This document shows positions 1 to 52,501 of a DNA stretch of 64,000 bases, piece after piece (positions within the stretch are counted from its first letter, which is position 1; each line of letters begins with the position of its first letter). Source of the stretch: Myxococcota bacterium (GTDB taxonomy: Bacteria; Myxococcota_A; Polyangia; Nannocystales; Nannocystaceae); the NCBI GenBank assembly GCA_039028615.1, contig JBCCHT010000030.1:28151-92150 (forward strand), written 5' to 3'. A model generated the notes under the pieces. That model was given only the letters and a program-made list of their open reading frames with translations, searched no databases and was not told the origin of the DNA. Position numbers and translations under genes: made by a program.

Positions 1-589
1 TCACCACGCCATCGTCACTTCGCATGATGTTGGCCGGCTTGAGATCGCGATGCACCAGCCCCTCGAGGTGCGCCGCCATCAAGCCCCGCCCCGCCTGCAC
101 GAAGGCCTCGAGCACCGCCCACCGATCGGGCCGACTCTTCAGCCAGGCCTTCATGCTCTCGCCGCGGATGTACTCCATCGCCAAGAAGAAGCGGCCGTCG
201 CTCTGCCCGACTTCGTGCACGGTGACCACGTGGGGGTGGGATAGGCGCGCCAAGGCCTGGGCCTCGCGTTGAAAGCGTCGCTGGTCCTCCTCGTCCGTGA
301 ACTCGTCCTCGAGCAGGATCTTGATCGCCACCTTGCGATCGAGTTCCTCGTCGTACGCGGCGTAGACCAGGCCCATCCCGCCCCGGCCGATCTGCTCGAG
401 CACGAGGAAACGGCCGATGCGTTCGGCCGTGGGCTCGGCGGAAAACAGGCGCTCTCGCACCTTGTCGGCGATGACCTGCTGGGTATTCGTGCCTTCGGCC
501 GAGCGTCCGGCGACCGGTGTGGCCCCCGCTCCGCCCTCTCCAGCCTGCAACGGGATGGTGGCAGAGTTCGATTCTTCCGACGATGCCAC
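1..589 (-). CDS. Ser/Thr protein kinase (Hanks-type), partial: N-terminal part in window, C-terminus lies beyond window start
   Basis: Manual minus-strand translation (frame absent from ORF track because no stop inside window) gives ...RIGRFLVLEQIGRGGMGLVYAAYD..VAIKIL..LSHPHVVTVHEV..LAMEYIRGESM..LVHRDLKPANIM; upstream in-frame stop at 635-637; probable GTG start at about 589. Confidence 0.8.
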   Translation of the reverse strand, partial: MASSEESNSATIPLQAGEGGAGATPVAGRSAEGTNTQQVIADKVRERLFSAEPTAERIGRFLVLEQIGRGGMGLVYAAYDEELDRKVAIKILLEDEFTDEEDQRRFQREAQALARLSHPHVVTVHEVGQSDGRFFLAMEYIRGESMKAWLKSRPDRWAVLEAFVQAGRGLMAAHLEGLVHRDLKPANIMRSDDGVV

Positions 590-643
590 CGCTTTGATGA
601 TCGCAGTTTTCGTGGTCCGCGAAAAGCAACTACGCTAGCCCCC

Positions 644-854: not shown

Positions 855-2387
855 TCACGAAGACCCGAATCGGGCCCGGAAGTCCAATTCGACGTCATCG
901 GCGAACCCGGTCACGATCGGGTGCTGGTCGCTGGAGACGATCATGTACACGTTCGCCGACTTGGGGTCGTTGAAGGTCCGCGTCTCCGGGAACGTGGTCT
1001 CGGAGTCGACCTCGAACAGCTCGATCGACGCCGTACTCGGGTGCTCGATGACCACGAAGTAGCTGGGGGTCCCCGCCCCGATGATCGTCTGATCTTCGAC
1101 CTCGAAGATCGCCTGCGTGTTGCTCGGATCGTGTCGCTCCGGCAGCCGGTACTTGGCCAGGAAGAACCCGATGCTCGCGTTGGGCAGCGAGTTGCTCCCG
1201 CTCACCCAGGTAGAGTCGTTGTTGTTCAGCTCCCCGGTGTGAAGGGCGTCGGCCGGGACCTCGAAGGTCGGGACCTCGAGGATCGTGCGCGTCGGCTGCT
1301 CGATGTCGTAGATCGGCAGGTAGCCCGAGTTCAGCCAGTCGCCGAGCACCAGGTGCGCCCCGAACTCGGTGACCACGCCCTCCATGCCGACCTCGTCGTC
1401 GCGCTCGCGGGAGACCAACGCCGCGAGCTGATCGACGATCCACGAGGTCTTCGCGGGCGCCGTGGTGATGAAGGAGGTGAATGCGGTGGGATAGGCGCGA
1501 GCCAGCCACATCCAAAAGGGCAGCGTCGGGTAGCCCTGGGCGGGCTTCGTGCGGTTGGCCAGGCGGATGTCGTTGGGCCGATCGAACCATGAGGTCAGCG
1601 TCACCGGGTTGGTGAGCGCCGAGTTGCCGTCGAGCTGCGAGAACTCGAGCTCGGCCCACACCGCCGTGCCCTCGAGGATCCAGTAGGTCAGCTGCTTCGT
1701 ACCCGCGTGGGTCACCGACACCGACCACCCGCAGCCGAACTGATAGGCGTGAAAGGCCTCGTGGGTCACGAATCCGTCGCGCGCGGCGGGGTTGCTGTCG
1801 TTGCGCATGAAGATGTCCGCATTGAAGTGGATCGTCTTCGTGGCCGCGTCGGCATACATGGCCGAGGTCGCGTCGAAGTAGGCCTTGCCCGAGCTGCCCC
1901 AGCCGAACTTGGTGCCGAAGGTGTCCACGAACCGCTGGATCACCCGATCGATGGTGTCGGAGACCCGCTGGGCGATGGCGGTCGTCACCGCGTTGCGCCC
2001 CGACGTCGCGTAGTAGACGGTGAAGAACCGGCCCTTGATCGACCGCAGGTCGCCCGCTTTGTCGCTTCGACGGGGCGCCTCGTAGTCGCGACGCTGCGCC
2101 GAGGAGAGCCCTTCGAGCAGCTCGGACATGCGCGCCCAGGCCGTCGTGCCGTGCACCGTCTTCCCGTTGCCGATGTCCCGCGCGGCGGTGCGGAAGTACT
2201 TGCGCAGGCGCGCGAGCTCGGTGGCCACCCCGGTGGGGATCGCGGGCGTCTTCCGCCCGGACTTGGCCGCGGTCTTTTTCTTCTTGGCCTTGCGAGTGCC
2301 CGTCGTTCGCTTCTTCCCGGCCTTCTTGTTCACCGCCTTCTTCTGTGCGGTCTTCTTCTTCGCGGTCTTCTTCTTCGCGTTCGCCAT
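855..2387 (-). CDS. hypothetical protein with Lys-rich histone-H1-like N-terminus and central HExxHxxQ putative zinc-metallopeptidase-like motif
   Basis: ORF 855..2420; likely start MANAKKK (aaggac upstream); N-terminus AKKKTAKKKTAQKKAVNKKAGKK; motif FVTHEAFHAYQFG encoded at 1749-1763. Confidence 0.6.
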   Translation of the reverse strand: MANAKKKTAKKKTAQKKAVNKKAGKKRTTGTRKAKKKKTAAKSGRKTPAIPTGVATELARLRKYFRTAARDIGNGKTVHGTTAWARMSELLEGLSSAQRRDYEAPRRSDKAGDLRSIKGRFFTVYYATSGRNAVTTAIAQRVSDTIDRVIQRFVDTFGTKFGWGSSGKAYFDATSAMYADAATKTIHFNADIFMRNDSNPAARDGFVTHEAFHAYQFGCGWSVSVTHAGTKQLTYWILEGTAVWAELEFSQLDGNSALTNPVTLTSWFDRPNDIRLANRTKPAQGYPTLPFWMWLARAYPTAFTSFITTAPAKTSWIVDQLAALVSRERDDEVGMEGVVTEFGAHLVLGDWLNSGYLPIYDIEQPTRTILEVPTFEVPADALHTGELNNNDSTWVSGSNSLPNASIGFFLAKYRLPERHDPSNTQAIFEVEDQTIIGAGTPSYFVVIEHPSTASIELFEVDSETTFPETRTFNDPKSANVYMIVSSDQHPIVTGFADDVELDFRARFGSS

Positions 2388-2641
2388 ACCGAGGTCCTTT
2401 CGACGGGAGCACCCCCACATCGACCGAGTCCGCCACTGCGGCCTCGGCGTCGAGGCATCACTCTACCGCGGAAGTCGCTCCAATTTTCGCTCGGTTTGGG
2501 CCCGCTTCGATCGGCCGAAGTCGCCGACATTACGCCGTTTGTGGGGCATCTCGGGCCCTCCTCGAATTATTCGGCCGGGCCTTGAGCAGATTGCGGGTCG
2601 GTGGAGACTCCCCCCCGTGAGCGCCGCTCCCCACCGCACCC

Positions 2642-3655
2642 ATGTTTGCCACTCCGCCGCCCATCGAAACGCTGATGCTCGAGTTCGAGGACACCCTCGA
2701 CGCCTACTTGCCCGGGGCTGATCTCGAGCCCCGCGATCTGCACGCCGCCATGCGACACGCGGTCATCGGCGGAGGCAAGCGACTTCGACCGCGGCTGCTG
2801 CTGTCCACGCTGCTGGCGACCCATGACCGCGCGCCCGACGAGGACACCCTCGATCTGGCCATGCGAGCGGCGGTGGCGGTCGAGATGATCCATGCCGCCT
2901 CTCTCGTGCACGACGACCTCCCCTGTTTCGACGACGCCGCGCTGCGCCGGGGCCAGCCCACCGTGCACCAGGCCTTCGGCGAGCCCATGGCCGTGCTGGC
3001 CGGCGACGCGCTGATCACCCTGGCCTTCCAGGTGCTCGCGGAATACGGCGGCCCCCATGCGAGCGCCGCCCTGCGGCTGGTCGCGCTGCTCTCCGAAGCC
3101 ACCGGGTCGGCCCGCGGCATCATCGGCGGACAGAGCCTCGAGCTCGCCCCGGGCCCGGCCGAGTACGACGCCGACTTCGTCCGCGAGTACCACCAGGCCA
3201 AGACCGCCGCCTTGTTCCGCTTCGCCACCCGAGCCGGCGCCGTGGTGTCGGGCATCAGCCGCGAGCACGAAGAGCGCTGGGGCCGAGTCGGCACCAACCT
3301 CGGCCTGTGCCTGCAGCTGCTCGACGACCTGATCGACGTGCATGGCTGTGACGCAGACTCGGGCAAGACCACCGGTCGAGACCTCGCGCTCGGCCGCCCC
3401 AACGGCGTGCTCGTGGAGGGCTCGGCCACCGTGCTTCACCGCCTCGAGCAGCTGGTCGACGCCTCCGTCGATCTCGTCGAAGCGCTGTCCATCGATCCAG
3501 AGCCCGTTCGCGCCCTGCTCGACCGATTCGAAGCCATGCGACGCCAGGCCCACCAATCGGCGGCCAACGACAGTCCCCTCCCCACGATCCCCAAGGCCCG
3601 GCGTCAGACCGACCCTCACCGGGTTGCCCTCTTGCCTCGGCCCGCCGCGGGCTGA
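2642..3655 (+). CDS. trans-polyprenyl diphosphate synthase (GGPP/FPP synthase family)
   Basis: 337 aa; first Asp-rich motif LVHDDLPCFDD and second Asp-rich motif LLDDLIDV typical of trans-isoprenyl diphosphate synthases. Confidence 0.9.
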   Translation: MFATPPPIETLMLEFEDTLDAYLPGADLEPRDLHAAMRHAVIGGGKRLRPRLLLSTLLATHDRAPDEDTLDLAMRAAVAVEMIHAASLVHDDLPCFDDAALRRGQPTVHQAFGEPMAVLAGDALITLAFQVLAEYGGPHASAALRLVALLSEATGSARGIIGGQSLELAPGPAEYDADFVREYHQAKTAALFRFATRAGAVVSGISREHEERWGRVGTNLGLCLQLLDDLIDVHGCDADSGKTTGRDLALGRPNGVLVEGSATVLHRLEQLVDASVDLVEALSIDPEPVRALLDRFEAMRRQAHQSAANDSPLPTIPKARRQTDPHRVALLPRPAAG

Positions 3656-3658
3656 GTC

Positions 3659-5062
3659 ATGACTGCCATGGCCACCAAGGACGCCCCCATGGTCACGCCT
3701 CGCGAGCGCGCGACCACCTTGTCGCTCGAGCCGAGCCCCCACGGCGCCTCCTCGATGGAGCGACGGGGCCGACAGATGTACGAGGCCACGCTGGCTTCGT
3801 ATCGGCGCAGCCTCGATCAGCACATGCCCGAGTGCGCCTTCCGTTCGTTCGCCGACTGGGGCTCGACCCCGGGCCACGCGGAGCACGAGCTGTTTGCCCA
3901 GATCAACGGGGTGTCTCAGCTCGCCCGGATGACCACGCTGCTGCTGAGTCCCGCCACGCCGACCGACCGAGAGTGGAGCCAGGTCGCGCCCGCGGCCGCG
4001 CTGATGAACGCCTGGCAGACGCACGAAGTCTACTCCGACAACCTCGCGCTCGGGCTCGGGCTCCCACCGACCCTCGATGACGAGGCGATGGCCGGTCGCC
4101 GGGAGCTGCTGCGGCGCTTCAACCACGAGATCGTCCGCTACCTCGATCTGTGCCCCCGCGCCACACGAGCGCAGCTCCACGGCGTGCTGAGCGGCTTCGA
4201 TTCCGAGGTCTCGTTGTTTGAGCAGTCCCTCGGTGTCGACAAGCACCAACGGCTCGCCCGGGCCTTCGCCGCCGTCCGACCCGAGCTCGACGAGCGCGCG
4301 CTGGAGCACGACTACGCCGCCGTCCTGACCGCCAACGTGATGAGCGCGGGCGAGGTCATGGACGCGATCGATCACCCCGCGCTGCGCGTCCTCGTCCGCC
4401 GCTGGCTTCGGCACCGCTACCGCTCCGTCGACGCCATGATGCAGGGGTGGGACTTCTACGAGCTCGATCTGCTCGAGCACGGCGGTCGCACGATCCTGGT
4501 CGCCCCCACCCTCGGCTACTACGTGTTCGCGGTCGCCGATGCGCTCGGCCTGCGCAGCCGACTGACGCCCGAGCTCGTCTACGGCCCGCTGGAGGAGGCC
4601 TTGCGTTCGGCGGCGATCCTCGTCCGGCTGCTCAACGACCTGGGAACCTCCCTGATGACGGAGACCACCGACCAGCGTCGGCGGGAGCTGGAGGCCCTGA
4701 GCGAGACCCTGCTGTACCGCGACCCCCGAGACACGCGCCTGGTGGACGCGCTAGCCCGGCTGGAATCGGCCAGCTTCACCCGCCTGGCCAAGGATGCCCG
4801 GTTCCGAGAGATCAACCTCGGCTTCTACGGTTTCGGCCACCGCGAGCTGAGCCCCGCGCTCGTCGGCGAGCTCACCCTTCGCATCGACTCGTTCGCCAGG
4901 GCCTACGAAGACCACCGTCGCGCCATGGCCGAGAACCTCTCGTTGCTCACCGCGCAGCTCGGCGACTCGAGGTGTGCCTCCATGGTCGATGCCTTCGTGT
5001 CGTTCCACGAAGAACTCTACGGGCACCACTATCATCAAGGCGCGGGGGAGTACGCCGTCTGA
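3659..5062 (+). CDS. hypothetical 467-aa helical protein translationally coupled to the prenyl diphosphate synthase; possible non-canonical class I terpene synthase
   Basis: starts 4 bp after upstream stop, same strand; NSE/DTE-like segment LLNDLGTSLMTE (spacing off by one from consensus); no canonical DDxxD found. Confidence 0.5.
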   Translation: MTAMATKDAPMVTPRERATTLSLEPSPHGASSMERRGRQMYEATLASYRRSLDQHMPECAFRSFADWGSTPGHAEHELFAQINGVSQLARMTTLLLSPATPTDREWSQVAPAAALMNAWQTHEVYSDNLALGLGLPPTLDDEAMAGRRELLRRFNHEIVRYLDLCPRATRAQLHGVLSGFDSEVSLFEQSLGVDKHQRLARAFAAVRPELDERALEHDYAAVLTANVMSAGEVMDAIDHPALRVLVRRWLRHRYRSVDAMMQGWDFYELDLLEHGGRTILVAPTLGYYVFAVADALGLRSRLTPELVYGPLEEALRSAAILVRLLNDLGTSLMTETTDQRRRELEALSETLLYRDPRDTRLVDALARLESASFTRLAKDARFREINLGFYGFGHRELSPALVGELTLRIDSFARAYEDHRRAMAENLSLLTAQLGDSRCASMVDAFVSFHEELYGHHYHQGAGEYAV

Positions 5063-5071
5063 ACACGAAGA

Positions 5072-5103
5072 CCGCCCCGGGCTCGCGCGGAGCCACGGGG
5101 CGG
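5072..5103. terminator. GC-rich inverted repeat between convergent genes (possible bidirectional terminator)
   Basis: ccgccccg (5072-5079) pairs with cggggcgg (5096-5103), nested ggctc/gagcc; no U-tract. Confidence 0.3.
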
Positions 5104-5134
5104 ATTCGGCGGAGCATCGCTCGCCGTCGACGAG

Positions 5135-6739
5135 CTAGCGGGCCATGCCGTAGGCCCCGCACCCGCTCATGGTGAAGTCCACGTCCCCCGGCGCCCCCGT
5201 GTAGAAGGTCGCCGACTGGGTCTGCGGGTCGTAGTACTCGACGTGGATCAGCCCCTGCTGCTGTCGGTACTCCGAGGCCAGGATGTCCTCGCTGAGCAGC
5301 GGCAGCGACACGACATTGTTGCCCGTGGCGAAGGGGGCCAGCGGGACATCGGCCGCCGTCGGCACGCGCCCCACCAACGCCCGGTACGGCTGCACGTTGG
5401 CATCGAAGTTCACCACGATGACCCCGCCGAAGCTCAGGTCGAAGTCCATCCAGGTGCTGCCGGAATCGATCGCGGTCCACCAGTAGTCCCAGCGCTGCGT
5501 GACCGGGTTCCACTGGCTGATGCGGTTCGCCGCGTCCTCGAACAGCGCGTCCGCATCGGAGATGGTCTCGAGATTACCCACCGTGCACAGGCCGATGAGG
5601 TTGTTGCCGGGGTACACGGGCGTGGTGACCTTGGCGAGCACGACCGAGTCGATCTCCACTCCGTCGGACATGAGCCGGTAGAAGTAGGTCGGCGTCTCCG
5701 TCCCCTGCGGAGCCGCGCCCGGGTCGGTGAACGACAGCTCCGTGCCCGAGTACAGGGAGACCGCGGTGGGCCCGGCATCGCGAGCACAGGACGCGGTGTC
5801 GCTCGGCAGATCGGCCGGGTCGGTGGCCCGCCAGATCTCCACCGTGCCCGAGCCGGAGCTCAGCACGTCCCAGGTGATGACGACGTCTTCGCCGTCGAGG
5901 TCGATGTCGGCCTCGAAGCCCACGTTGTCGTCGAGCTCGGGCGTGAACACGGCGTCGTCCACCCCCGGGCACAGATCGTCGTCGTCCTCGACCCCGTCAC
6001 CGTCCGCGTCGGCCGATGCCATGCTCACGGTGGAGCCCGCCTCGATGGGCACCCCGATCTCGGTCTCGTAGGCCCACCCGTGGATGATGAGGTGGTTGTT
6101 GGCGCTGTCGGAGGCGTTGAGGTTGTCGTGGCGCGCCTCGAGGTCGATCCAGCCCATGCGGCCGTCGGAGGTCTGGAAGCCGATGTAGCCGCGGCGGCTG
6201 GTGCCGTCGGTCGAGTACCACTCGCCGTTGAGGTTGTTGTAGTAGCGAGCCGCGATCCACCCCGCTGGGTCGCCGCCGCTCCAGCCGTCGTTGAGGGAGT
6301 TGGTCGCGTCGATGAGGTCACCCGCGGCGAGGATCGAGGGCGTGAAGCGCTCGGGGTTGGTGAAGTGCGGCTCGCCGACCCACGTCGCCAGATCGAGCCC
6401 CGTCGGCCAGTAGAGGTTGATCGCCGACCATGTCCGCACGTTCCCGGCCCACGGTGCGTACTGGTGCACGTGCCCGAACCGCATGTCCACGTCGCCGTCG
6501 CCGTCGAGGTCGACATCGAGGGTCGTCGGTGCCCCGCTGGTGGTCTCCACCGAGTCCCGCACGACCAGCGGAGCCGCGCTGTGGTCGGTCACAATGACCT
6601 CGGCCTGCGCCTCCTCGGCATACAGGCCGATCCCCAGCGCCAGTGCCATCGCTCCGACCAGCAGCGCGCGGCTCCGTGCCGTAGTGCTCGCGCTCAGTGC
6701 CCAGTGTCCCCCGTTGATCCGTCCGTGATTCGTATGCAT
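5135..6739 (-). CDS. secreted hypothetical protein with Asp-rich calcium-binding (thrombospondin type-3-like) repeats
   Basis: ORF 5135..6835; start chosen at MHTNHG (6739) giving signal peptide ..RALLVGAMALALGIGLYAEEAQA; motifs DADGDGVEDDDDLCPGVDD, DIDLDGED. Confidence 0.65.
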   Translation of the reverse strand: MHTNHGRINGGHWALSASTTARSRALLVGAMALALGIGLYAEEAQAEVIVTDHSAAPLVVRDSVETTSGAPTTLDVDLDGDGDVDMRFGHVHQYAPWAGNVRTWSAINLYWPTGLDLATWVGEPHFTNPERFTPSILAAGDLIDATNSLNDGWSGGDPAGWIAARYYNNLNGEWYSTDGTSRRGYIGFQTSDGRMGWIDLEARHDNLNASDSANNHLIIHGWAYETEIGVPIEAGSTVSMASADADGDGVEDDDDLCPGVDDAVFTPELDDNVGFEADIDLDGEDVVITWDVLSSGSGTVEIWRATDPADLPSDTASCARDAGPTAVSLYSGTELSFTDPGAAPQGTETPTYFYRLMSDGVEIDSVVLAKVTTPVYPGNNLIGLCTVGNLETISDADALFEDAANRISQWNPVTQRWDYWWTAIDSGSTWMDFDLSFGGVIVVNFDANVQPYRALVGRVPTAADVPLAPFATGNNVVSLPLLSEDILASEYRQQQGLIHVEYYDPQTQSATFYTGAPGDVDFTMSGCGAYGMAR

Positions 6740-6998
6740 CGTCCTGCCCCTGTTGTCTGTGTCGTGGTGGAGGGGTCGGTGGCACTTCGATGCGTTCCCC
6801 TCATTGGGACCGCCTCGCCGCTGCCTCCGAGTCACCCTTCAACAGGGCAGTGTTGCGAGCCTCGAATCGGGATGAGTCCAACACACAAAAAGATCGTGAA
6901 ATGTTCGGTGAAATCTCGCCGGGTTCGAGACCGCGCGTCGCTGTCGGGGGTTCCCTGGGTTCGACCCGCGCGACCGCAATTGCCGATACTCCACTGCG

Positions 6999-7919: not shown

Positions 7920-7937
7920 ACGGACGGCGGAAACGAC

Positions 7938-7988: not shown

Positions 7989-10421
7989 CTAGCTCGGGAG
8001 CTCGGGGAAGAACAGCAGGGTCTTGTCGGTGGTGGTGGTCGGACCCACCGTCACCGGGCGACCGGCGCGGAAGATCCACTGCACGGTCCACTCGTACTCG
8101 TCCTGCCCGGGGCCGCCCCGCGGCACTCGCCAGTTGAGCGGCTCGGTGGGCGTGCTCATGTAGACCTTGTCGAGCGAGCCGTCGATGCCGTCGGGCGCGT
8201 TGGGGTAGTCGAGCTTGACCCGAACGCCACGCAGACCGTCGGCTTCGAAGTCGGTGGCGACGTGCACGGTGACCTCGAGCATGCCGTTGGTGAACACGTC
8301 GCCCACGTTGAGCTGGCTGTCGCCCGTGGTGCCCTCGCGCTTGCCCACCGTGCCGTCGCGGAAGAAGTAGTTGATCGAGTACGTGAACTGGACCGGATCG
8401 CCGGACGCGGGGTTGGGCACGGCCCAGCTGCCCGAGGGGCTGCCCGGGGTGAGCTCGAAGACCTTACTGCTGGCGCTGTCGTCGGCGCCCGTCTCGACCT
8501 CGACCACCGCCTTGGTGTAGCGACCGAGCGGATCGAGCAGCTCGAGGCGCAGCTCGGTGATCCCCTCGGGGTTGGCGTCGAGCAGCACGGTGTCGGAGCC
8601 GAGACGCTTGAGCGCCTCGACCTCGCGACGGGTGCCGTCGGTGTAGTGCCAGGTGCCCTCGACCTGCCAGTTTGCCGCCCGGGACCCGGGACGGATGGGC
8701 ACGTCGACGGAGGTAGAGCCGGACTCGAGCTTGAAGGCCCGACGCTCGGAGCCGAACACCACCGCGCCCTCGAACAGGCGGGTGCGCTCCCAGTCGACGC
8801 GGCCGGCCTCGACCTTGGCGAAGACCATGGGCGAGTGCGCCTCGGGGTCGACCTCGAGGTGCCGCGTGGTCGTCGGGACCCAGTCGCTGACCGTCTGCGA
8901 CTCGTCCTCACCCAGCGCGAAGCCAGCGACGTGGTTGAGGGTCACGCGGTAGCTGATCTCGCGCGAGCCGTCGCTGTCGACGGCGAAGCTATAGGCGTGC
9001 TCGCTCTCGTCGGACTCGAGCACGGCCTCGGAGGAGCGCACGTCGGCGCTGCCGTACTTGACCTCGACGATCATCGAGGAGATGCCGCGCTCGTCGAGCT
9101 TGGCGTTGGTGCGAACCTTGCCGGAGATGTCGCGGAAGAAGGGGTGATCGAGGTCGGCCTCGAGCACGAGGCTCTTGGGGTCGACCGAGCCGCTGAGCGC
9201 GCGCAGGGTGCCCTGCGGGGCGAAGGAGCGGGTCGCCGCCGAGCTGCCCTTGGTTTCGTAGGTCACCGTGCGCAGCTCTTGCTGCTGCAGGCGCCGCAGC
9301 ATGAAGCCGGCCTGGGGCCGCCCCGCCTGGTTCCAGCGCTCGACCGCGGTGGGCTGGCGCGGCGTATTGGAGCCGCTGTTGTTGCCCGAGCCGTTCCCGG
9401 CGTTGTTGCCCGAGCCGTTCCCGGCGTTGTTGCCCGTGAGCCCGCCGCTGACGTTCGCGGTGCCTTCGACGACGTTGCTCTCGCTCCCCGAGTTGCCCGA
9501 GTCATCGCCCGAGCCCGGCGGGGTCAGGACCAGCGGCGTGGTGAAGCCGGCCGTATTGCTCGTGGCGTCGGTGGTCGCGTCGTAGATCGACATCGTGCCG
9601 CGATCGGCCGCGAGCACGGTGCCGGGGTTGATGGACGGCGAGAAGAAGTTGCCGGCCGCCAGCTCTTTGGCCAGGGCCTCGAGGCGCGTGCGCTCGGCCG
9701 CGACCTTGTCGGGCTCGAGCCCGACGAAGTCCTCCTGCTCGATGACGATGGCCTCCTCGCGCTGGAGCTTCTCGAACTCCTGATCCATGTCCGCCTTGAA
9801 GACCAGGGTGTTGGCCTGAAAGCGGTTGCGCAGGTGGTTGTAGGTCTGCTTGAAGTCGATTTTGATGTTGCCGCGATAGGTCGGCAGCATGCCCTTGAAC
9901 TGGAGGTCGTAGACCACCGACACGGGCAGCGCCCCCGGCTCGAGGATGGCCGCGCGCATGATCAGCGCCCCGCGGTGGCTCAGCTCCACGGAGAATGTGG
10001 CCCGGTTGTCACCATAGAGGGCGGGCTTGGCCGAGCCGATCACGCTCTCGATGAACAGCGACGCTTCTTCCTGGCCTTGCTGAAAGCCCAGCGTCGACAG
10101 CCGCACCGAGCCCCCCTCGAGCTGCACGGGCGAGACCGAAGCCGTGCCGCCGACTCGACTCGACAGCTCGGACTCGAGCTCTTCGATCTTGCTCTTGCTG
10201 ATCCCGAGGTCGACCGTCAGATCGAGAAAGCCACCGCCCGGCGCATCACCATCGCTGCGGTCCTCCATGGCCTTGCGATAGACGACGAGTCGAAACGCGA
10301 TGCCGTCGCCCAGCTTGGCGATCCGAGGCGCACCCGGCATGTAGTAGAAGAGACGCGGGTTGCTGTGGTCGCGGTAGACCACGATCCCGCCAAGCTCCAT
10401 GGGGCTGTCGAGAGAGAGCAT
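7989..10421 (-). CDS. large hypothetical protein (810 aa), no signal peptide, central Asn/Gly-rich low-complexity linker
   Basis: long ORF with protein-like composition; GNNAGNGSGNNAGNGSGNN linker; no recognisable catalytic motif. Confidence 0.6.
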   Translation of the reverse strand: MLSLDSPMELGGIVVYRDHSNPRLFYYMPGAPRIAKLGDGIAFRLVVYRKAMEDRSDGDAPGGGFLDLTVDLGISKSKIEELESELSSRVGGTASVSPVQLEGGSVRLSTLGFQQGQEEASLFIESVIGSAKPALYGDNRATFSVELSHRGALIMRAAILEPGALPVSVVYDLQFKGMLPTYRGNIKIDFKQTYNHLRNRFQANTLVFKADMDQEFEKLQREEAIVIEQEDFVGLEPDKVAAERTRLEALAKELAAGNFFSPSINPGTVLAADRGTMSIYDATTDATSNTAGFTTPLVLTPPGSGDDSGNSGSESNVVEGTANVSGGLTGNNAGNGSGNNAGNGSGNNSGSNTPRQPTAVERWNQAGRPQAGFMLRRLQQQELRTVTYETKGSSAATRSFAPQGTLRALSGSVDPKSLVLEADLDHPFFRDISGKVRTNAKLDERGISSMIVEVKYGSADVRSSEAVLESDESEHAYSFAVDSDGSREISYRVTLNHVAGFALGEDESQTVSDWVPTTTRHLEVDPEAHSPMVFAKVEAGRVDWERTRLFEGAVVFGSERRAFKLESGSTSVDVPIRPGSRAANWQVEGTWHYTDGTRREVEALKRLGSDTVLLDANPEGITELRLELLDPLGRYTKAVVEVETGADDSASSKVFELTPGSPSGSWAVPNPASGDPVQFTYSINYFFRDGTVGKREGTTGDSQLNVGDVFTNGMLEVTVHVATDFEADGLRGVRVKLDYPNAPDGIDGSLDKVYMSTPTEPLNWRVPRGGPGQDEYEWTVQWIFRAGRPVTVGPTTTTDKTLLFFPELPS

Positions 10422-10686
10422 TGGAGGCCGTTTGATTGGGGGTCGGCAGAGACAGGGGCCGCAATCCGCAACGGACGGGCACCCAACGATGGCGTCACCC
10501 TAACACCTCGAACCGAGTCTTGGGGTATCCACGTTTTCGCCCGCGACGTTACGCGGTTCCGTGAGCGAATCCATCGGCCGGCTAGTCGGCCGACATGCGG
10601 ACACCCATCGACTCGCCTACCGCCTCGTCAATGGCTATGGCACTGTGTGGCGCAGGCAGGGTAGTGGACCCGGCCGGGAGGTACCG

Positions 10687-12462
10687 ATGGCAGCTGTCGC
10701 CTCGCTAGTGGTCAGGCTCAAGACTTCGGGGAGTTCGGGCTCGAGTACGGACGACTGGGTCTACTTCGGAATCGGTACCCGCGAGTGGCTGCTGGATACC
10801 GACCGCGACGACTTCCAGGTCGGCCAGACCGAGACCTTCACCCTGCGGGTCTCGCCGGGCCTCGACACCTCGCACATCCAGGCGATCCAGCTGCGCAAGG
10901 TCAGCACCGACGGGTGGAAGCCCGAGCAGATCGAGGTCTTCGTCAACGACGCCAACATGACCGGCACCCCGCTTTATCGGGGCACCATCGACATGTTCCT
11001 CGATGGCGGCGGCGGGGCGGGGCTGGGCTATGGCCTGTGCTGGGAGGCCCCCGACTACACCGGGATCTTCGCCAACCCTACTCCCTACGCCCACGCCACC
11101 GATCCCGCGGTGACCTCCCTCTCGGTCGAGATCAAGACCGCGGCGGGGGCCGACAGCGGCACCGACGACGACGTCTACTTCAACGTCGGCACCCGCGAGT
11201 GGCTGCTCGACAAGCCCAGCCACAACGACTTCCAGCCGGGCCAGACCGACACCTACACGCTGACCAACTTCGGCTCGCTCAAGCTCAGCCACATCCGCCG
11301 CATCGCCCTGCGCAAAGAAGGCGACAACGGCGTCCAAATCGAGAAGATCAAGGTCACCATCAACGGCACGGTGCGCCTCGACGAGACCATCAATCGCTGG
11401 CTCGACGGCGGGTCGGGGGCCGAGCTGCAGCACGGCAAGTTCTGGGCCTCGCGCAACTTCCCGCACCCCGCCCCCGCGCCCATCGAAGACGCCATCACCG
11501 AGCTGAAGGTCACCGTCAGGACGCGGGACGTCGAGCACGCCGACACCTCGAACTACGTCTACTTCAACAACGGCATCAACGAGTGGACGCTGGGCGACCC
11601 GGCCAGCAACTACGGTCGCAACTCGAGCCAGACCTTCACCATCACCAACCTCACCGGGGTTCGGCTCTCCGATTTCCGCCAGCTGATGATCCGCAAGGAA
11701 GGCGGCAACGGCTGGGGCCTCGGGCACGTCAAGGTCGAGGTCAAGATGGGCGCGGTCAGCCGCACGCTCTACGACGGCTCCACCCGGATCTTCCTCGACG
11801 GCGCGGGCTCCGACTCCTCGAATCGACACGGCCTGTACTGGTCGGCCGCCGACTATGTCGTGCGGGTCCCCCTGCACTGCCACTGGGTCACCGGGCCCGT
11901 CGCGGGCGGCGTCACCCCGCGGCGTTCACAAGAAGCCAGCGCCGAGATCATCCGCAACCTCGGCACCGCCGCCTACCGCCAGGGTATGGGCGGCAGCAAC
12001 GGCTACTGGCACCAGGCCCGCGCGCAGTTCCACGTCATCGGCTTCACCCGGGCGCTCACGACCAACGCCAACGCCACGGTCATGTCCGACACCAACGACA
12101 ACTTCGCGATCATCGGCACCATCGCCGCCGCCAACAACGTCGCCAACGTCATCAACGCCTACTTCGTGCGGGCCACCAATACCGGCTCCAACTGGAACGT
12201 CCCCGCCGCCAGCTCCATCTGGGTGCAGGACACCCGAGGCGGCGCCACCGCCAACACCGGGGCCAACTTCCGCATGGTCGCCGTGTCCACGGCGCACGAG
12301 CTGGGCCACCATTTCGGCCTCAACCACGCCGGGGTCAAGCGCTACCTGATGACGGGGACCGGCACCAACCAAACCTCTCAGCTGCTGAACTTCTCGACCG
12401 GCGAAGACACCACCGCCCACACGGGCACCAAGAACCGCTTCGGCGCCACCGCGGGCCCCTAG
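10687..12462 (+). CDS. three tandem PLAT/LH2-like domains fused to a C-terminal minimal metzincin-type zinc metalloprotease domain
   Basis: GGGAGG RBS before ATG 10687; three ~100-aa repeats (VVRLKTSG..DDWVYFGIGTREWLLD; VEIKTAAG..DDDVYFNVGTREWLLD; VTVRTRD..NYVYFNNGINEWTLGD); HELGHHFGLNH encoded at 12295-12327, possible Met-turn RYLM. Confidence 0.8.
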   Translation: MAAVASLVVRLKTSGSSGSSTDDWVYFGIGTREWLLDTDRDDFQVGQTETFTLRVSPGLDTSHIQAIQLRKVSTDGWKPEQIEVFVNDANMTGTPLYRGTIDMFLDGGGGAGLGYGLCWEAPDYTGIFANPTPYAHATDPAVTSLSVEIKTAAGADSGTDDDVYFNVGTREWLLDKPSHNDFQPGQTDTYTLTNFGSLKLSHIRRIALRKEGDNGVQIEKIKVTINGTVRLDETINRWLDGGSGAELQHGKFWASRNFPHPAPAPIEDAITELKVTVRTRDVEHADTSNYVYFNNGINEWTLGDPASNYGRNSSQTFTITNLTGVRLSDFRQLMIRKEGGNGWGLGHVKVEVKMGAVSRTLYDGSTRIFLDGAGSDSSNRHGLYWSAADYVVRVPLHCHWVTGPVAGGVTPRRSQEASAEIIRNLGTAAYRQGMGGSNGYWHQARAQFHVIGFTRALTTNANATVMSDTNDNFAIIGTIAAANNVANVINAYFVRATNTGSNWNVPAASSIWVQDTRGGATANTGANFRMVAVSTAHELGHHFGLNHAGVKRYLMTGTGTNQTSQLLNFSTGEDTTAHTGTKNRFGATAGP

Positions 12463-14096: not shown

Positions 14097-15920
14097 GTGG
14101 TCGAATCTAGTGCACACCATGACCTCGCAACACTTCTGCGATCGGGCGCCGGCAAAGACATTCTCTCGGGTCTCCGTGGTGTAAGTCTCGCAGAGAACAA
14201 CCTCCAGGGGGCTGACCTCCGAGAAGCTGACCTCCGAGAAGCTGACCTCCGAGAAGCTGACCTCCGAGAAGCTGACCTCCGAGAAGCTGACCTCCGAGAA
14301 GCTGACCTCCGAGAAGCTGACCTCCGGCGAGCTGACCTTGCTGGAGCAGATCTCCGAAGCGCTCGACTTGCAACAGCAGATTTTCGAGGAGCCAACCTCT
14401 ACGCCGCTGATATCAGAGAGGCTACTCTGTCCAATATCAGTGCCCCGGGCGATTCTTCATATCGAGGAATCGCAAAATTCCAAGGCTGTAATCTTCACAG
14501 AGCAAATCTGAGCAACACAGATCTTTCCTTCGCCAGCTTCCATGGAGCACTCCTCTACCAGGCGAACCTTCACTCGACACATGGATATGACCCGCAATTC
14601 CAAGGCGCGGATCTAGCTTTTTCACAGATCCAGAAGGTCAAGTGGACAGGAGCCAACCTACAGGGCTCCAGGGCATGCTATTCCTTCATATACAAATCTG
14701 AACTAAGAGAAGTCAACATCAGAGGCACAGACCTACGGAACGCACTAGCACTCCGATCCGACCTAAGCCGAATTAACACACGAGGCACAAGGACAGAAAG
14801 CTCCGTTGTCGACTTCCTCTTCGGAAGGGCGCTTTCTCGGAACCCCAAGAGACGAATCTCAGAGCTCGCAGGACGTCTAGTACTCGAAAAGAGGGATGAC
14901 CAGTTAGAACAAATACGCCTAAGCCTGAAGAACCACTACCACAAAGGCGAAGATCTAAACAACGAAGAGATTCACTGGTTTGACCTCGAAGGGAACGACT
15001 ATACTCAAGCGGACTTCGAGGGGGCCTCATTTTCAGGCTACAATTTCCGAAACGCATGCCTCACGGGAGCCAATCTCATCAGGGCCAATCTTCGAGGCGC
15101 AGATCTTCGAGGTGCAGACCTTCGAAACGCGAAACTCTCCTTTGCAAGCCTACAGGGCGCGAATCTTGAAGGTGCGGATCTGGAGGGCGCAGACCTGGGC
15201 AACGCAAGCGTCGCTGGCGCGGATCTTCAAAATGCCTGTCTGAGAGCCTCGAATTTATCCGGCGCGGACCTTCGCGGAGCAAGCCTGGAAGGAACCACTC
15301 TCGAGGCAGCGAATCTCGACAACGCTGACATCCGAGACATATACACCGACAAGCACACATTGTTCGCGGCGAGCTCCCTCGATGGGGCAGTGATCAGAAG
15401 TTACACAATCGTAGATGTCGACAACATATCCGACCGTCAGAAGATACGACTCAACATCCATGACTCCCTCGCAGAGCTCAGGAGTGACTACTCTGGACTC
15501 TGGCTTTGGTTTCACCTAATAGCGCTCATCGCGTTCCTATCGCCGTACCTGTCCTTTATCGGCCGCGCCCTCGCGCTCTCGGCCATAACCCCTCCATCAG
15601 AGGGGGCTCATTCGCTCGCCTTTGAGCTCGGATGGTACATATTGTCCGGCGGCGATGGAACGCATGAAATCAGCGCAAAGTTCTACTTGTTCATTATTGG
15701 GATTTTGTACAACGCCATCCGAGGAGCATTGCTCTACAAAACCCACTCGCTGATGCTTCAGCAGGAGATCTCCCAGCTACCACTAATGTACATACTAGAA
15801 AATGACTACTGGTGGAACCTAGCGCACAAGACCGCAAGAACCATGTTTCGGATCAACCTCTTTATCGTCGCAGTTCATTTGCTCATGTTTTTTCAACAAC
15901 CCGTGGTACTAACGCTCTAG
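14097..15920 (+). CDS. pentapeptide-repeat protein with C-terminal multi-TM domain
   Basis: A(D/N)LxxA repeats across ~400 aa incl. ADLRE x8, ANLRGADLRGADLRNAKL; C-terminal hydrophobic helices; GTG start uncertain. Confidence 0.8.
   Translation: MVESSAHHDLATLLRSGAGKDILSGLRGVSLAENNLQGADLREADLREADLREADLREADLREADLREADLREADLRRADLAGADLRSARLATADFRGANLYAADIREATLSNISAPGDSSYRGIAKFQGCNLHRANLSNTDLSFASFHGALLYQANLHSTHGYDPQFQGADLAFSQIQKVKWTGANLQGSRACYSFIYKSELREVNIRGTDLRNALALRSDLSRINTRGTRTESSVVDFLFGRALSRNPKRRISELAGRLVLEKRDDQLEQIRLSLKNHYHKGEDLNNEEIHWFDLEGNDYTQADFEGASFSGYNFRNACLTGANLIRANLRGADLRGADLRNAKLSFASLQGANLEGADLEGADLGNASVAGADLQNACLRASNLSGADLRGASLEGTTLEAANLDNADIRDIYTDKHTLFAASSLDGAVIRSYTIVDVDNISDRQKIRLNIHDSLAELRSDYSGLWLWFHLIALIAFLSPYLSFIGRALALSAITPPSEGAHSLAFELGWYILSGGDGTHEISAKFYLFIIGILYNAIRGALLYKTHSLMLQQEISQLPLMYILENDYWWNLAHKTARTMFRINLFIVAVHLLMFFQQPVVLTL
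14211..14330 (+). repeat. perfect 15-bp tandem repeat gctgacctccgagaa x7 plus one imperfect unit, encoding (ADLRE)n
   Basis: direct reading of sequence 14211-14330; in-frame inside pentapeptide-repeat gene. Confidence 0.9.
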
Positions 15921-17096: not shown

Positions 17097-21773
<4,677 letters not shown>

Positions 21774-30280: not shown

Positions 30281-32854
30281 ATGAACGGATCCCCCTTCGA
30301 TCCCGCGTCGTCCGTCCCGGACATCGAGCACCAGGTCGTGCTCGCCGAGGTCGAGGCGGGGCTCTTCGGCTCGACCCCCGGGGTGGAGATCGACCGCTAC
30401 CGCATCGTGGGACGACTGGGGCGCGGGGGCATGGGCGTGGTGTATCGCGCCCAGGACCCACAGCTCGATCGGGCGGTGGCGCTCAAGCTCTTGCACCCTT
30501 CCGAGCCCGGGACGGCACCGCGTCAGCGTCAGCGTTTGCTCCGCGAGGCGCGAGCGCTCGGCCGCCTCGATCACCCCAACGTGGTCACCGTCTTCGACGT
30601 CGGACTGGCGGGCGCTCAGGTGTTCGTGGCCATGGAGCTGTGCGAGGGCATGAACCTCGAGCAGTGGCTCGCCGACTCCCGGCGGAGCGTGGCGGAGATC
30701 GAGCGGGTGTTCGCAGCGGCGGGCCACGGGCTGCTCGCCGTCCATCGGGCGGGCCTGGTGCACCGCGACTTCAAGCCGAGCAACGTCATGGTCGGTGACG
30801 ACGGCCGCGTGCGGGTGCTGGACTTCGGGCTCGCCAAGTCGGTGTCGGAGCAAGCCGTCATGACCACGACCGACGAGGATCGTGCGCCCCCATCGGCCGC
30901 CGAGCTGACCGGGCGTGGCGCCGTGGTCGGCACGCCTCGGTACATGGCGCCCGAGCAAGCGCGAGGAGAACGAGGGGATGCACGCGCCGACCAGTACGCG
31001 TTTTGTGTCGCCCTGCACGAGGCGCTCCTCGGCTCGGTGAGCGCCGAGCCCGACTCGCACCTGCCTCCCACGCCCCACGGACACGTCCGCCGACGGGTTC
31101 GCTCGGCGATCGTCCGAGGCCTGCAGCGCGACCCGAACGACCGCTTCGACGACCTTCGGCCGCTGCTGTCCGAGCTGGCGCGACCGCGTAGGGCTCGATG
31201 GCTGGCCGCGCTCGGTGGGGCCGCCGTCGTGTCCGCGGCCTTCATGATGACTCGGTCGCCGTCTCCCGATCCCTGCGCCGATGCCTCGGCGCCCATCGAC
31301 GCGGTGTGGAGCAACGCCGCCCGATCGGAGCTTCACGCCCACCTCGCCGGGCTGCCGCGGCCCTTCGCGGCCGACACGGCCCAGCGGGTCGACACGCGCC
31401 TGCACGCCTACACGGAGGCGTGGCGAGCCATGGCCCGCGACAACTGCGAAGCGACCCGCGTCCACGACGAGCAATCGTCGGCCACCGAGACGCAGCGCAG
31501 AGCATGCCTGGCGGGTCGAGCCGATGCCCTCGCCGCGATGGTCGAAACGCTTCGGGCGATCGATCCCGAGCGGCTGCGGACCGCGGTGGCGGCCAGCGGG
31601 AGCCTGCCCAAACTGGAAGGCTGCGGGCCCGGACCCCACTTGGCCGAGACCTCGTCCAACCCCGCCGACCCGGCGCATGCCCGCCGCGTCCGGGCCCAGC
31701 TCGCGCGCGTGCGGGCGCTGCTACGAACGCACGACTACGCTACCGCCGAGCGCGTGCTGGAGCCCATTGCCGCCATGGTCGGGCCGCCGAGCGATGCCGG
31801 CTTCGATCCCGTCCTGCAGGCGGAGCTGCGCTATGCACAGGGCCGCGTGATGTCGCGGCTGGGTCGTTACGACGACGCCGAGCGGCACCAGCGCGAGGCC
31901 GTCGAGGGCGCGCTCGAGTTTCGCCGCGAAGCGCTCGAGGCCGAAGCGCGGGTGGACCTGATGCGACTGGTCGCGACTCGCCACCCCGAGGACATCGACT
32001 CGGTCCGCAACGAGGCCCTCGCCGCGGCGCGACGCCTCGCCGATCCCGGGGTCTTGGTGATGGCCCTGCGGCAGTCGGCCGCGACCCGGACCACCCCCGA
32101 GCAACGCGACCAAGCCCGACGAGAGCTCGAGCAGGCGCTGAGCCTGAGTCGCACCATGCCCGATGGCGCCCTGGCCGAAGCGGCGACCCGCGTCGCGCTG
32201 GGCATCTGGCACACGCAGCGCGAAGACTTCGCGGCGGCGACCGAGCAGTTCGAGCAGGCCTATGCGCTCGAGCTCGACACCCTGGGGCCCGATCATCCGC
32301 GGGTCACCCTCTCGCTGCGCAACCTGGCCGCCGTCCACCGCACCATCGGCGATCTGCCGCAGGCCCAGCGCGAGCACGAACGCGTCATCGAGCTGCTGTC
32401 GGTGGCCCTGCCCCCCGATCACCCCGAGCTCGCCGTCGAGCTGGCCAACCTCGGCGGCGTGCACCTCGATCTCGGTCGGCCCGAGCACGCCGCTCGCCTG
32501 GCCGCGCGAGCGGTGAAGATCTTGGAGCGCAGTCGGGGCCCCGATCACCCCGAGGTGGCCTGGGCCGCGAGCTTGCAGGCAATCGCGCTGCGACAGGCGG
32601 GATCGTCTGCCGAAGCGGTCGAGGTCTCGACCCGCGTCGTCGAGATTCACGAGGCCAATTCCGAGACCCCGAGCCCCGAGCTGGCCGCCGCGTGGCTGGA
32701 GCGGGCCCGGGCCCACCACGGCGCAGGACAGTCGGCCGAGGCCCACGCTGCCGCGCTGCGGTCGGGGACCCTCGCGCAGCAGGCGGGCAACCAAGCGCTG
32801 CAGCACGAGGCGGAACAGCTCGCTCGGGAGTGGTCGCAACCCGCGACGGAATGA
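30281..32854 (+). CDS. Ser/Thr protein kinase with long C-terminal helical/TPR-like repeat domain
   Basis: GRGGMGVVY, VALK, HRDFKPSNVM, DFG, GTPRYMAPE; divergent from the ECF sigma gene. Confidence 0.85.
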   Translation: MNGSPFDPASSVPDIEHQVVLAEVEAGLFGSTPGVEIDRYRIVGRLGRGGMGVVYRAQDPQLDRAVALKLLHPSEPGTAPRQRQRLLREARALGRLDHPNVVTVFDVGLAGAQVFVAMELCEGMNLEQWLADSRRSVAEIERVFAAAGHGLLAVHRAGLVHRDFKPSNVMVGDDGRVRVLDFGLAKSVSEQAVMTTTDEDRAPPSAAELTGRGAVVGTPRYMAPEQARGERGDARADQYAFCVALHEALLGSVSAEPDSHLPPTPHGHVRRRVRSAIVRGLQRDPNDRFDDLRPLLSELARPRRARWLAALGGAAVVSAAFMMTRSPSPDPCADASAPIDAVWSNAARSELHAHLAGLPRPFAADTAQRVDTRLHAYTEAWRAMARDNCEATRVHDEQSSATETQRRACLAGRADALAAMVETLRAIDPERLRTAVAASGSLPKLEGCGPGPHLAETSSNPADPAHARRVRAQLARVRALLRTHDYATAERVLEPIAAMVGPPSDAGFDPVLQAELRYAQGRVMSRLGRYDDAERHQREAVEGALEFRREALEAEARVDLMRLVATRHPEDIDSVRNEALAAARRLADPGVLVMALRQSAATRTTPEQRDQARRELEQALSLSRTMPDGALAEAATRVALGIWHTQREDFAAATEQFEQAYALELDTLGPDHPRVTLSLRNLAAVHRTIGDLPQAQREHERVIELLSVALPPDHPELAVELANLGGVHLDLGRPEHAARLAARAVKILERSRGPDHPEVAWAASLQAIALRQAGSSAEAVEVSTRVVEIHEANSETPSPELAAAWLERARAHHGAGQSAEAHAAALRSGTLAQQAGNQALQHEAEQLAREWSQPATE

Positions 32855-45601: not shown

Positions 45602-47536
45602 GTGCCCGGACCACAGCCGCGCGCTAGGCTGACGATAGCGCTCCCCTCCGTGCCGCCCGAAGCTTCATCCTCTCCGTCGCCGGACTACGAGCTCACCAAC
45701 GAGATCGGTAGTGGGGCGATCGCAACGGTGGTGCGCCTGGTCGAGCGCCACACGGGCTCGGTGTACGCGGGCAAGCTGTTGCACGAACGGCACGGGCGCG
45801 ACCCCGCGGCGAGCCGTCGCTTTCATCGCGAGGCGGAGCTCTCCTGCGGCCTGGGGCACGACAACCTGGTGCGGGTCTACGGCACGACTCGGATTCGCGG
45901 TCGCATCGCACTGTTGATGGAGCTGGTCGAGGGTCCGACGCTGGCTCAGCATCTCGCCCGGCAGGGGCCTCTGGCCGAGGCCGAGCTGGTGCCACTCTTA
46001 CTGGGCATCGCGCGAGGGCTGGCCCACGCCCATACGGCGGGAGTGATCCATCGCGATCTCAAGCCGGCCAACATCCTGCTCACGCCGAGCTTGGTCCCGA
46101 AGATCGCCGACTTCGGCATGGCCCGGGCGTCGTCGTTCGCCAGCGCCGACAAAGGGGCGCTCACCGTGCTGGGCACGCCGCAATACATGGCGCCCGAGTG
46201 CCTCGAGCCGCTGGCCGTCGACCCGCGCACGGACCTGTACGCGCTGGGCTGCATCCTGTTCGAGCTGGCCACGGGGGCACCTCCGTACAGCGGGGCCACG
46301 CCCTTTGCCGTACTCGACCAACACCGCAATGCGCTGAGACCCGAGCTGCCCGCGACGTTCTCTTCCAGCCTACGCAAGCTCTGTACGAGGCTCATCGCCA
46401 AGGCGCCCGGCGATCGACCCCAGTCGGCCAATGCGGTGATCGAAGCGCTCGAGCGCTGCGCGACCGCCCACGGGGCCTTGGTACCCGTGTCGGATTCCAC
46501 CGCCCTGGTCGGCGTCGACCCGAAGGAAGCGGCCGATGGGCGCTGTGCGGGCTGCGGCGCAGCGGTGCTGCGAGAGACCCGGGTGTGCTTCGGGTGCGGC
46601 CTGCTGCAAGCGATGATCGAGCCGGGGTCGAGCACGCTGTTCGTCACCGGTCCGGGCGCGGTGTCCCACAAGCTCGACAGTGAGCTGCGCGATCGATTGC
46701 TCCGCTGGCTGCAGGCCAACGAGGCCGTCGGCCTCGACCCCAGTGAGCTCGAGCGGCGGATCCCTCGACTGCCGTTTCCTTTGCTCACGGGGATCAGCCC
46801 CCGCAGCGCGGAGACGCTCCGTGCGTCGCTCCAGCACCTGGGCATCGAGACGTCGTGGAACCCGGGCGGGCGCCTGGCCAACCTGCAGCTGTTCAACAAG
46901 ACCAACAAGCTCGCCGGGCGCACCATGGCGATCTGCTTCGCCGTGCTCGGGGCTCCGATGATGATCAACCCCGCGTTCGCGATCTTCACCCTGCCCGCGC
47001 TGGTCGCCTGCTTGCCCTTCGTCTACGGCCTGACCCTGGCTCGGGTGTCGCGACCCGCCGTGCGCCTGAGTCGGGTGCCGAGCCACGGGCTGCCGCCCCA
47101 GGTCAAGGCGAGGCTCGATGGCATGCCGCAGGTGGTGGGGCAGCTCGGGCAGCGACGGCATCGCGAGGCGCTGCGGGCCGTGGTGCACCGGGTCATCACC
47201 CTCAGTCGCAACACGCCCGCGCAGATCCAGCCACAGATCGATGCCGAGATGAACCATGCGATGGCGCTGGCCACCGCCGCGACGCTGCGCATGGACGGGC
47301 TCGATCGGCAGATGTCGGCGCCGGGCTTCGATCCCGCGGAGCCCACGGCCCGGGCGGTGATGCACGAGCGCGATCGCTGGGCCGCCCGCTTGCTCGATCT
47401 CACCGCGACGCTCGACGCCCTGACCGCCCGACAAACCGCCGCCCAGGTGCAGGCCCTCGACGCGGCGAGCGTGCCCGGGCAGCTCGATGAGCTGCGTGCC
47501 ACCGTCGAAGCCCTCGAGGAGGTCCAGCGCGCATGA
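45602..47536 (+). CDS. Ser/Thr protein kinase with C-terminal extension
   Basis: IHRDLKPANILL, DFGMA, GTPQYMAPE. Confidence 0.85.
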   Translation: MPGPQPRARLTIALPSVPPEASSSPSPDYELTNEIGSGAIATVVRLVERHTGSVYAGKLLHERHGRDPAASRRFHREAELSCGLGHDNLVRVYGTTRIRGRIALLMELVEGPTLAQHLARQGPLAEAELVPLLLGIARGLAHAHTAGVIHRDLKPANILLTPSLVPKIADFGMARASSFASADKGALTVLGTPQYMAPECLEPLAVDPRTDLYALGCILFELATGAPPYSGATPFAVLDQHRNALRPELPATFSSSLRKLCTRLIAKAPGDRPQSANAVIEALERCATAHGALVPVSDSTALVGVDPKEAADGRCAGCGAAVLRETRVCFGCGLLQAMIEPGSSTLFVTGPGAVSHKLDSELRDRLLRWLQANEAVGLDPSELERRIPRLPFPLLTGISPRSAETLRASLQHLGIETSWNPGGRLANLQLFNKTNKLAGRTMAICFAVLGAPMMINPAFAIFTLPALVACLPFVYGLTLARVSRPAVRLSRVPSHGLPPQVKARLDGMPQVVGQLGQRRHREALRAVVHRVITLSRNTPAQIQPQIDAEMNHAMALATAATLRMDGLDRQMSAPGFDPAEPTARAVMHERDRWAARLLDLTATLDALTARQTAAQVQALDAASVPGQLDELRATVEALEEVQRA

Positions 47537-52495: not shown

Positions 52496-52501
52496 GCGCC
52501 T

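Follow-up and report, generated by a model that had tools for sequence, protein, structure and literature searches.

Does the prenyl diphosphate synthase gene of a myxococcotal bacterium supply a terpene synthase that standard annotation does not recognise? The question is raised by two genes on the forward strand of a 64-kb window, which is the whole stretch of DNA analyzed here (positions 28,151 to 92,150 of contig JBCCHT010000030.1, assembly GCA_039028615.1, from a member of the Nannocystaceae). Gene 1 encodes a short-chain trans-polyprenyl diphosphate synthase, and gene 2, immediately downstream, encodes a helical protein of 467 amino acids (Table 1). An earlier note, made from the sequence of this DNA, had suggested that the second protein might be a divergent or non-canonical (di)terpene synthase. 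This suggestion is supported by end-to-end homology to a characterized enzyme, PeuTPS, and by the conservation of the seven residues that are essential in that enzyme. The gene 2 protein is very probably a class ID non-canonical terpene synthase, encoded in an operon behind a likely geranylgeranyl diphosphate (GGPP) synthase.

Homology, fold and motifs of the gene 2 protein

Class ID was described by Abe et al. (Chem Sci 2024; PMC11234867), who searched the AlphaFold models of hypothetical proteins from actinomycetes encoded near genes for (E)-isoprenyl diphosphate synthases (E-IDSs) and thereby established three new classes of non-canonical terpene synthases, named ID, IE, and IF, of which class ID corresponds to their type-1 enzymes. 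The type enzyme of class ID, PeuTPS from Pseudonocardia eucalypti (MBB6373681), is active on its own and forms the 6/6/6-tricyclic peugersemienes A and B from GGPP in a reaction that requires Mg2+. The class is characterized by the motifs D(N/D), ND, and RXXKD, and alanine variants of D95, N96, N289, D290, R338, K341, and D342 in PeuTPS each lost their activity or showed a strong reduction. Type-1 homologs were recognized by a BLAST E-value below 1e-5, and each of the seven class ID homologs that were assayed, which represent several phyla, was a diterpene synthase (PMC11234867). In our literature search, PeuTPS or class ID enzymes were mentioned only in this paper.

An open reading frame (ORF) at positions 10007..11302 of the locus L013, from P. 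eucalypti JCM 18303, yields a protein of 432 amino acids if read from Met8, and all seven published residues and their numbers match. Since both the organism and the exact numbering agree, we take this protein to be PeuTPS. The gene 2 protein aligns with PeuTPS from end to end in a BLASTP comparison (32% identity over 426 amino acids, E-value 8e-47), and the seven essential residues are all identical, corresponding to D127, N128, N326, D327, R375, K378, and D379. The two proteins thus share full-length homology, the three motifs, the seven essential residues, and a similar size (432 versus 467 amino acids), as well as a class I-like α-fold with extra helices, the absence of the DDxxD and NSE/DTE motifs, and the failure of Pfam to recognize them. 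They differ in that the gene 2 protein is only 32-33% identical to PeuTPS, belongs to a separate subclade, and has a disordered N-terminal extension of about 30 residues. They also differ in their genomic context, since a dedicated synthase gene lies immediately before gene 2, whereas PeuTPS is reported to be located away from terpene genes. Eight class ID enzymes have been characterized (MBB6373681, WP_218477332, WP_166381380, WP_157545681, AGP38205, WP_055470764, WP_012187888, and MMAR2565), SceTPS and HauTPS among them, and PeuTPS is the one with which the gene 2 protein was compared. Judged by its sequence and its predicted structure, the gene 2 protein has every feature of sequence and fold that defines class ID, and catalysis would follow by homology.

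Two of the checks that had been proposed in the earlier note, a hidden Markov model (HMM) search and a structure prediction, agree with this assignment. The 467-amino-acid protein has no match in Pfam, NCBIfam, or, in a phmmer search, the PDB sequences at E-values up to 10, as is expected of a non-canonical enzyme, and the predicted model shows the class I α-fold. A profile inferred from 145 family sequences gave only chance matches to PDB sequences, such as glutamyl-tRNA reductase (E-value 0.014) and a capsid protein. Terpene synthases were absent from these matches. A word-indexed search identified 26 related proteins, none of which has a Pfam domain, and the nine with source names are all annotated as hypothetical proteins. 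An exhaustive phmmer search among 1.84 billion proteins identified 228 cluster representatives at E-values of 1e-3 or lower, which argues that gene 2 is a real and conserved gene. When the family profile was used for another search of a large database, P0154 was the only protein gained over the word-indexed set, and no informative names or taxa emerged. The only Pfam model that recurred was Terpene_syn_C_2, with sub-threshold matches in five of 27 relatives (best E-value 0.023), and the relative P0144 matches this model with an E-value of 0.0083 and 16.3 bits against a cutoff of 23.7.

The AlphaFold2 model of the gene 2 protein, built on a 27-sequence alignment, is all-helical (predicted local distance difference test score, pLDDT, 91.2; predicted template modeling score, pTM, 0.90), with disorder only at residues 1-28. 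The model matches the class I α-helical terpene cyclase fold, with extra helices. Approximately 280 residues align structurally to class I cyclases, while about 185 of the 467 residues fall outside, which agrees with the earlier observation that the protein is some 130 amino acids longer than typical bacterial terpene synthases. The canonical class I cyclases of the Terpene_syn_C_2 type, represented by tolypothrichol synthase (9kgb), Sat1646 (7e4o), and pentalenene synthase (1ps1), share the predicted fold at a sequence identity of 8-14%. In contrast to these enzymes, the gene 2 protein lacks DDxxD, the full NSE/DTE triad, and any Pfam match at E-values up to 10, and it contains about 185 extra residues. 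The effector triad of the canonical cyclases is reported to be absent from the class ID model (PMC11234867). The class IB enzymes (BalTS/tetraprenyl-β-curcumene synthase, 5yo8) have motifs of their own, DYLDNLXD and DY(F,L,W)IDXXED, and use C25-C35 substrates, and 5yo8 scores below the canonical cyclases in the structural comparison with the gene 2 model. A heme-oxygenase-like diiron enzyme, considered on account of the helical fold and the HE and FHE strings, was rejected because only one histidine is conserved and the fold matches are terpene synthases.

The structural comparison also bears on whether the protein might use a prenyl substrate without cyclizing it, for example by transferring it, like the N- and aromatic prenyltransferases of the DabA/KabA type, or by only releasing a linear alcohol or olefin. 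The cyclases outscore the prenyltransferase-type structural matches by 5-7 Z units, and a gene for the supply of an acceptor substrate is absent from the operon. Moreover, the direct homologs that have been assayed yield cyclic diterpenes (PMC11234867). We consider a non-cyclizing enzyme to be very unlikely.

The class ID motifs are strongly conserved in the gene 2 family, as counted in an alignment of 145 relatives. In the D(N/D) motif, which is located within HEVYSDNLALGLG, D127 is conserved in 144 of the 145 relatives, and the next position is occupied by N or D in 138. In the ND region, D327 and G329 are present in all relatives, N326 in 143, and T330 in 103. In the RXXKD motif, R375 and D379 are each found in 144 relatives and K378 in 143. 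The earlier note had seen an NSE/DTE-like triad in the protein. Residues 324-335 consist of LLNDLGTSLMTE, which includes an NSE-like string shifted by one residue, NDLGTSLMTE, at positions 326-335. This is the sole match, shifted by +1, and a regular-expression search of the gene 2 protein for the strict (N/D)Dxx(S/T)xxxE pattern found none. The N-D pair of the suggested triad is retained as the conserved ND motif of class ID, but E335 lacks conservation, and only 29 of the 145 relatives have a glutamic acid at the canonical position 334. As read from the alignment, there is no shifted NSE triad, and the class ID family uses different residues. The weak Terpene_syn_C_2 match in P0144 stops exactly at ...LLVRLLNDIGT, suggesting that the ND motif of class ID probably occupies the place of the N-D in NSE. 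A search for DDxx[DE] over the 467 amino acids was also negative, consistent with the earlier remark that a canonical DDxxD is missing.

Additional residues are conserved outside the published motifs. E123, Y254, R323, G329, and Y454 are each present in all 145 relatives, and R253, N226, E384, and N386 in 141-144 of them. These residues were not probed by Abe et al. (PMC11234867), and the conservation table for the 145 relatives points to positions that are worth mutating beyond the published seven.

The conservation is also relevant to the idea that the gene 2 protein serves the adjacent synthase as a regulatory subunit or non-catalytic partner, much as small subunits do in heteromeric synthases. 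The polar residues that are proven to be catalytic in PeuTPS are strictly conserved, an adjacent synthase is missing in most family members, and PeuTPS needs no partner for its activity (PMC11234867). A purely regulatory role is therefore extremely improbable.

The upstream synthase and the proposed reaction

Gene 1 encodes a protein that matches PF00348 (polyprenyl_synt) with an E-value of 1.1e-50 and contains both Asp-rich motifs (Table 1). In the type II synthases of bacteria, farnesyl diphosphate (FPP) is the product when position -5 relative to the first motif is aromatic, and GGPP is the product when the residue there is small. The gene 1 protein has an alanine at position -5, and GGPP (C20) is therefore the predicted product. 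The co-linear synthases in the loci L020, L001, and L015 carry the same IH(A/S)ASLVHDDLPCFDD pattern. Gene 1 likely makes GGPP, in agreement with the diterpene activity of the assayed class ID enzymes. Similar to the CrtE-like type II GGPP synthases of bacteria, the gene 1 protein belongs to PF00348 and has alanine and serine at positions -5 and -4, its first motif, DDxxxxD, includes a two-residue insertion, and its second motif is DDxxD. It differs from them in that it scores below the CrtE equivalog cutoff (177 versus 460 bits) and in that carotenoid genes are absent nearby.

A class ID synthase that acts on FPP (C15) or geranylfarnesyl diphosphate (GFPP, C25), made by the neighboring synthase, would be compatible with part of these data. 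The top NCBIfam match of gene 1 is to the FPP synthase model FPPsyn (216 bits) rather than to the CrtE GGPP synthase (177 bits), and FPP synthases and GGPP synthases both occur among the nearest solved structures. Substrates also vary among the non-canonical classes, with the class IF enzyme being a sesquiterpene synthase, although all seven assayed class ID enzymes are diterpene synthases (PMC11234867). However, neither NCBIfam score reaches its cutoff, which is 275 bits for FPPsyn and 460 bits for CrtE. Furthermore, position -5 is occupied by alanine, and not by tyrosine or phenylalanine, in gene 1 and in all three co-linear homologs, as in the GGPP pattern. A substrate of another chain length appears unlikely. 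All three alternatives to a cyclizing diterpene synthase are weakened by the conservation of the catalytic residues and by the assays of the homologs.

In the reaction proposed for a class ID diterpene synthase at this locus, gene 1 would supply GGPP (C20), and D127/N128, N326/D327, and R375/K378/D379 of the gene 2 protein would, by homology, bind the Mg2+-diphosphate of the substrate and trigger its ionization. The allylic (geranylgeranyl) cation would then cyclize in a hydrophobic cavity to a diterpene hydrocarbon or alcohol. The seven motif residues are expected to cluster around one active-site cavity, a placement that is based on the PeuTPS model (PMC11234867), and we infer the enzymatic activity, the C20 substrate, and the type of product from the homologous enzymes.

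Several points weigh against this interpretation. The class I fold of the gene 2 protein rests on a predicted model, and PeuTPS, the sole characterized relative in the comparison, is only 32% identical, so that neither the product nor the chain length can be safely transferred. The NCBIfam scores of gene 1, both below the cutoff, fail to separate an FPP synthase from a GGPP synthase. No adjacent synthase was found at the 13 loci that are more distant (L002-L014) or on the short contigs encoding P0003 and P0004. Finally, the tight spacing of the two genes is not kept, as the called gaps in the relatives are 90-162 nucleotides.

A subclade with paired synthase genes

The gene 2 protein and P0001-P0007 form a subclade by identity clustering, with 40-52% identity to the gene 2 protein. 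Between the members of this subclade and the other 137 sequences in the 145-sequence set, identity does not exceed 39%, and PeuTPS is placed in a different cluster. A synthase gene is located directly upstream and co-linear with the genes for P0001, P0007, and P0002, which are 51%, 42%, and 44% identical to the gene 2 protein, and the synthases at these loci are 64%, 59%, and 55% identical to gene 1. Since an adjacent synthase was found only among the nearest relatives, the pairing marks the subclade and not the whole family, and the longer gaps in the relatives indicate that the tight spacing is specific to the source genome. A pairing that is confined to a subclade agrees with the contexts described previously, where MMAR2565 is located near an E-IDS gene and PeuTPS is not near any terpene gene (PMC11234867). 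The scan of the genome collection relied on a single peptide pattern, [LR]VRLLND[LVC]GT, and the 10 loci that it identified represent a lower bound rather than a census.

The class ID family, its motifs, fold, and activity have been known since 2024 (PMC11234867), and the gene 2 protein is a new, uncharacterized member. The result extends the class ID work and would not surprise a specialist, but it is useful for terpene discovery, and in the subclade of the gene 2 protein no characterized member was identified. Class ID escapes mining with HMMs of the Pfam, NCBIfam, and antiSMASH kind, and each new member therefore marks terpene chemistry that is overlooked by standard annotation. Because the operon is compact and includes its own precursor synthase, it is an easy target for heterologous expression. 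We tentatively suggest, as a possibility that falls somewhat short of an even chance, that the gene 2 protein and P0001-P0007 make an undescribed diterpene skeleton, and that the additional conserved residues form part of a distinct metal- and diphosphate-binding, cation-steering architecture that replaces the effector triad and the glutamic acid of NSE.

Other relatives show a variety of gene arrangements and architectures. The locus L012, from an Anaerolineae metagenome-assembled genome (JALHQT010000007.1), contains two class ID paralogs on the same strand, about 1 kb apart (7707-9095 and 10001-11236), which suggests a local duplication in some Chloroflexota. In P0144 (1459 amino acids), P0151 (1102 amino acids), and P0166 (1292 amino acids), a C-terminal class ID domain is located behind some 700-1000 mostly unannotated residues. 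The N-terminus of P0144 is rich in lysine and asparagine and has no Pfam match, while P0151 contains a VWA_CoxE domain, and the SD(N/D) and RXXKD strings were not found in it by regular expression. An SRPBCC/Polyketide_cyc2 gene adjoins the class ID synthase gene in L002 (8384-8872), L003 (51-539), L016 (3384-3848), and L017 (1615-2079). These neighbors occur in two unrelated contexts, once together with a P450 fragment, and in L001 a P450 gene (14174-15412) is located 3 kb from the class ID synthase gene. It is possible that SRPBCC/Polyketide_cyc2 proteins and P450s are recurring tailoring partners of class ID synthases.

Layout of the locus and other genes in the window

The boundaries of the two ORFs are those given in the earlier note, which had also placed the start of the second gene 4 bp past the synthase stop (Table 1). 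Across the junction, the sequence is GGC TGA gtc ATG, and the ATG indeed opens on the fourth base after the stop codon. A strong Shine-Dalgarno sequence is absent from this region. The public contig L021 (Logan SRR22824298) is 100% identical to positions 2350..6655 of the window, and the gene caller starts gene 2 at the later ATG on this contig, which leaves a gap of 12 nucleotides. The GC content at third codon positions (GC3) is 0.87 in the first ORF and 0.89 in the second, which is typical of true genes in a sequence with 68% GC. In codons 1-32 of the second ORF, the in-frame GC3 is 0.94 versus 0.56 and 0.66 in the other frames, which makes the early ATG credible and suggests that the N-terminal extension is probably translated. 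The intergenic gap is consequently 3 or 12 nucleotides, depending on the choice of start, and we infer that the two genes are translationally coupled. The public records contain the synthase encoded by gene 1, while the exact 467-amino-acid protein is absent from them.

Table 1. Positions of the two genes, their motifs, and the intergenic features in the 64-kb window
Feature	Position	Strand	Basis
Gene 1, short-chain trans-polyprenyl diphosphate synthase, predicted GGPP synthase, 337 aa	2642..3655	+	PF00348
First Asp-rich motif of gene 1, D91-D-L-P-C-F-D-D98, with A86 (-5) and S87 (-4), context ...EMIHAASLVH-DD	2912..2935	+	Regular expression and sequence
Second Asp-rich motif of gene 1, D228-D-L-I-D232	3323..3337	+	Regular expression
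Gene junction: TGA 3653-3655, 3-nt spacer, ATG 3659-3661, alternative ATG 3668	3653..3670	+	Sequence reading
Gene 2, probable class ID non-canonical terpene synthase, 467 aa (464 aa from 3668)	3659..5062	+	PeuTPS homology
D(N/D) motif of gene 2, D127-N128	4037..4042	+	Aligns to PeuTPS D95/N96
ND motif of gene 2, N326-D327-L-G329-T330, within VRLLNDLGT	4634..4648	+	Aligns to PeuTPS N289/D290
RXXKD motif of gene 2, R375-L-A-K378-D379	4781..4795	+	Aligns to PeuTPS R338/K341/D342
GC-rich 13-bp hairpin between convergent stops, candidate terminator without T-tract	5072..5103	.	Folding

The pair is flanked by a divergent gene upstream (855..2420, reverse strand) and a convergent gene downstream (5135..6835, reverse strand), and a Pfam search identified no domain in either of them. 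The hairpin between the convergent stops was spotted by eye and then folded. Its minimum free energy is -34.2 kcal/mol (z -4.62), and none of 200 shuffled sequences folds equally well, and it may serve as a terminator. A scan of positions 2300..5300 for consensus promoters and terminators gave nothing meaningful, and it missed the hairpin because it requires a short loop and a run of T. Tailoring genes were looked for beside the pair and none were found, the nearest P450, O-methyltransferase, and short-chain dehydrogenase/reductase (SDR) genes being about 50 kb away. As predicted from its gene content, the region 2642..5062 is a minimal, self-contained two-gene terpene operon without tailoring genes.

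The divergent upstream gene (855..2420) encodes a protein of 521 amino acids with a lysine-rich N-terminus (KKKTAKKKTAQKK...) and a HEAFH string that resembles HExxH, and it may be an unclassified metalloprotease. A protein of 633 amino acids is encoded at 10561..12462 (forward strand), in which repeated PLAT/LH2 domains are followed by a zincin-like metalloprotease region with the string HELGHHFGLNH and weak matches to M10 and reprolysin, an architecture that is unusual for a bacterium. The GC content falls to 0.527 at 14001-16000, compared to about 0.68 elsewhere. The dip coincides with a gene at 14097..15920 (forward strand) for a pentapeptide-repeat protein of 607 amino acids (PF00805, E-value 3e-71), and the segment looks like a horizontally acquired island. 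The window also contains large TPR proteins, an Lhr helicase (17097..21773), and four Ser/Thr protein kinase genes (2..634, 30281..32854, 45602..47536, and 47533..49476). This gene content, combined with 68% GC, points to a myxobacterial genome. The region 51269..57969 encodes an SDR/epimerase (51269..52495), a DUF7481 protein, an O-methyltransferase (54201..54881), and a cytochrome P450 (56566..57969), and may represent a separate small-molecule locus, about 50 kb from the terpene operon.

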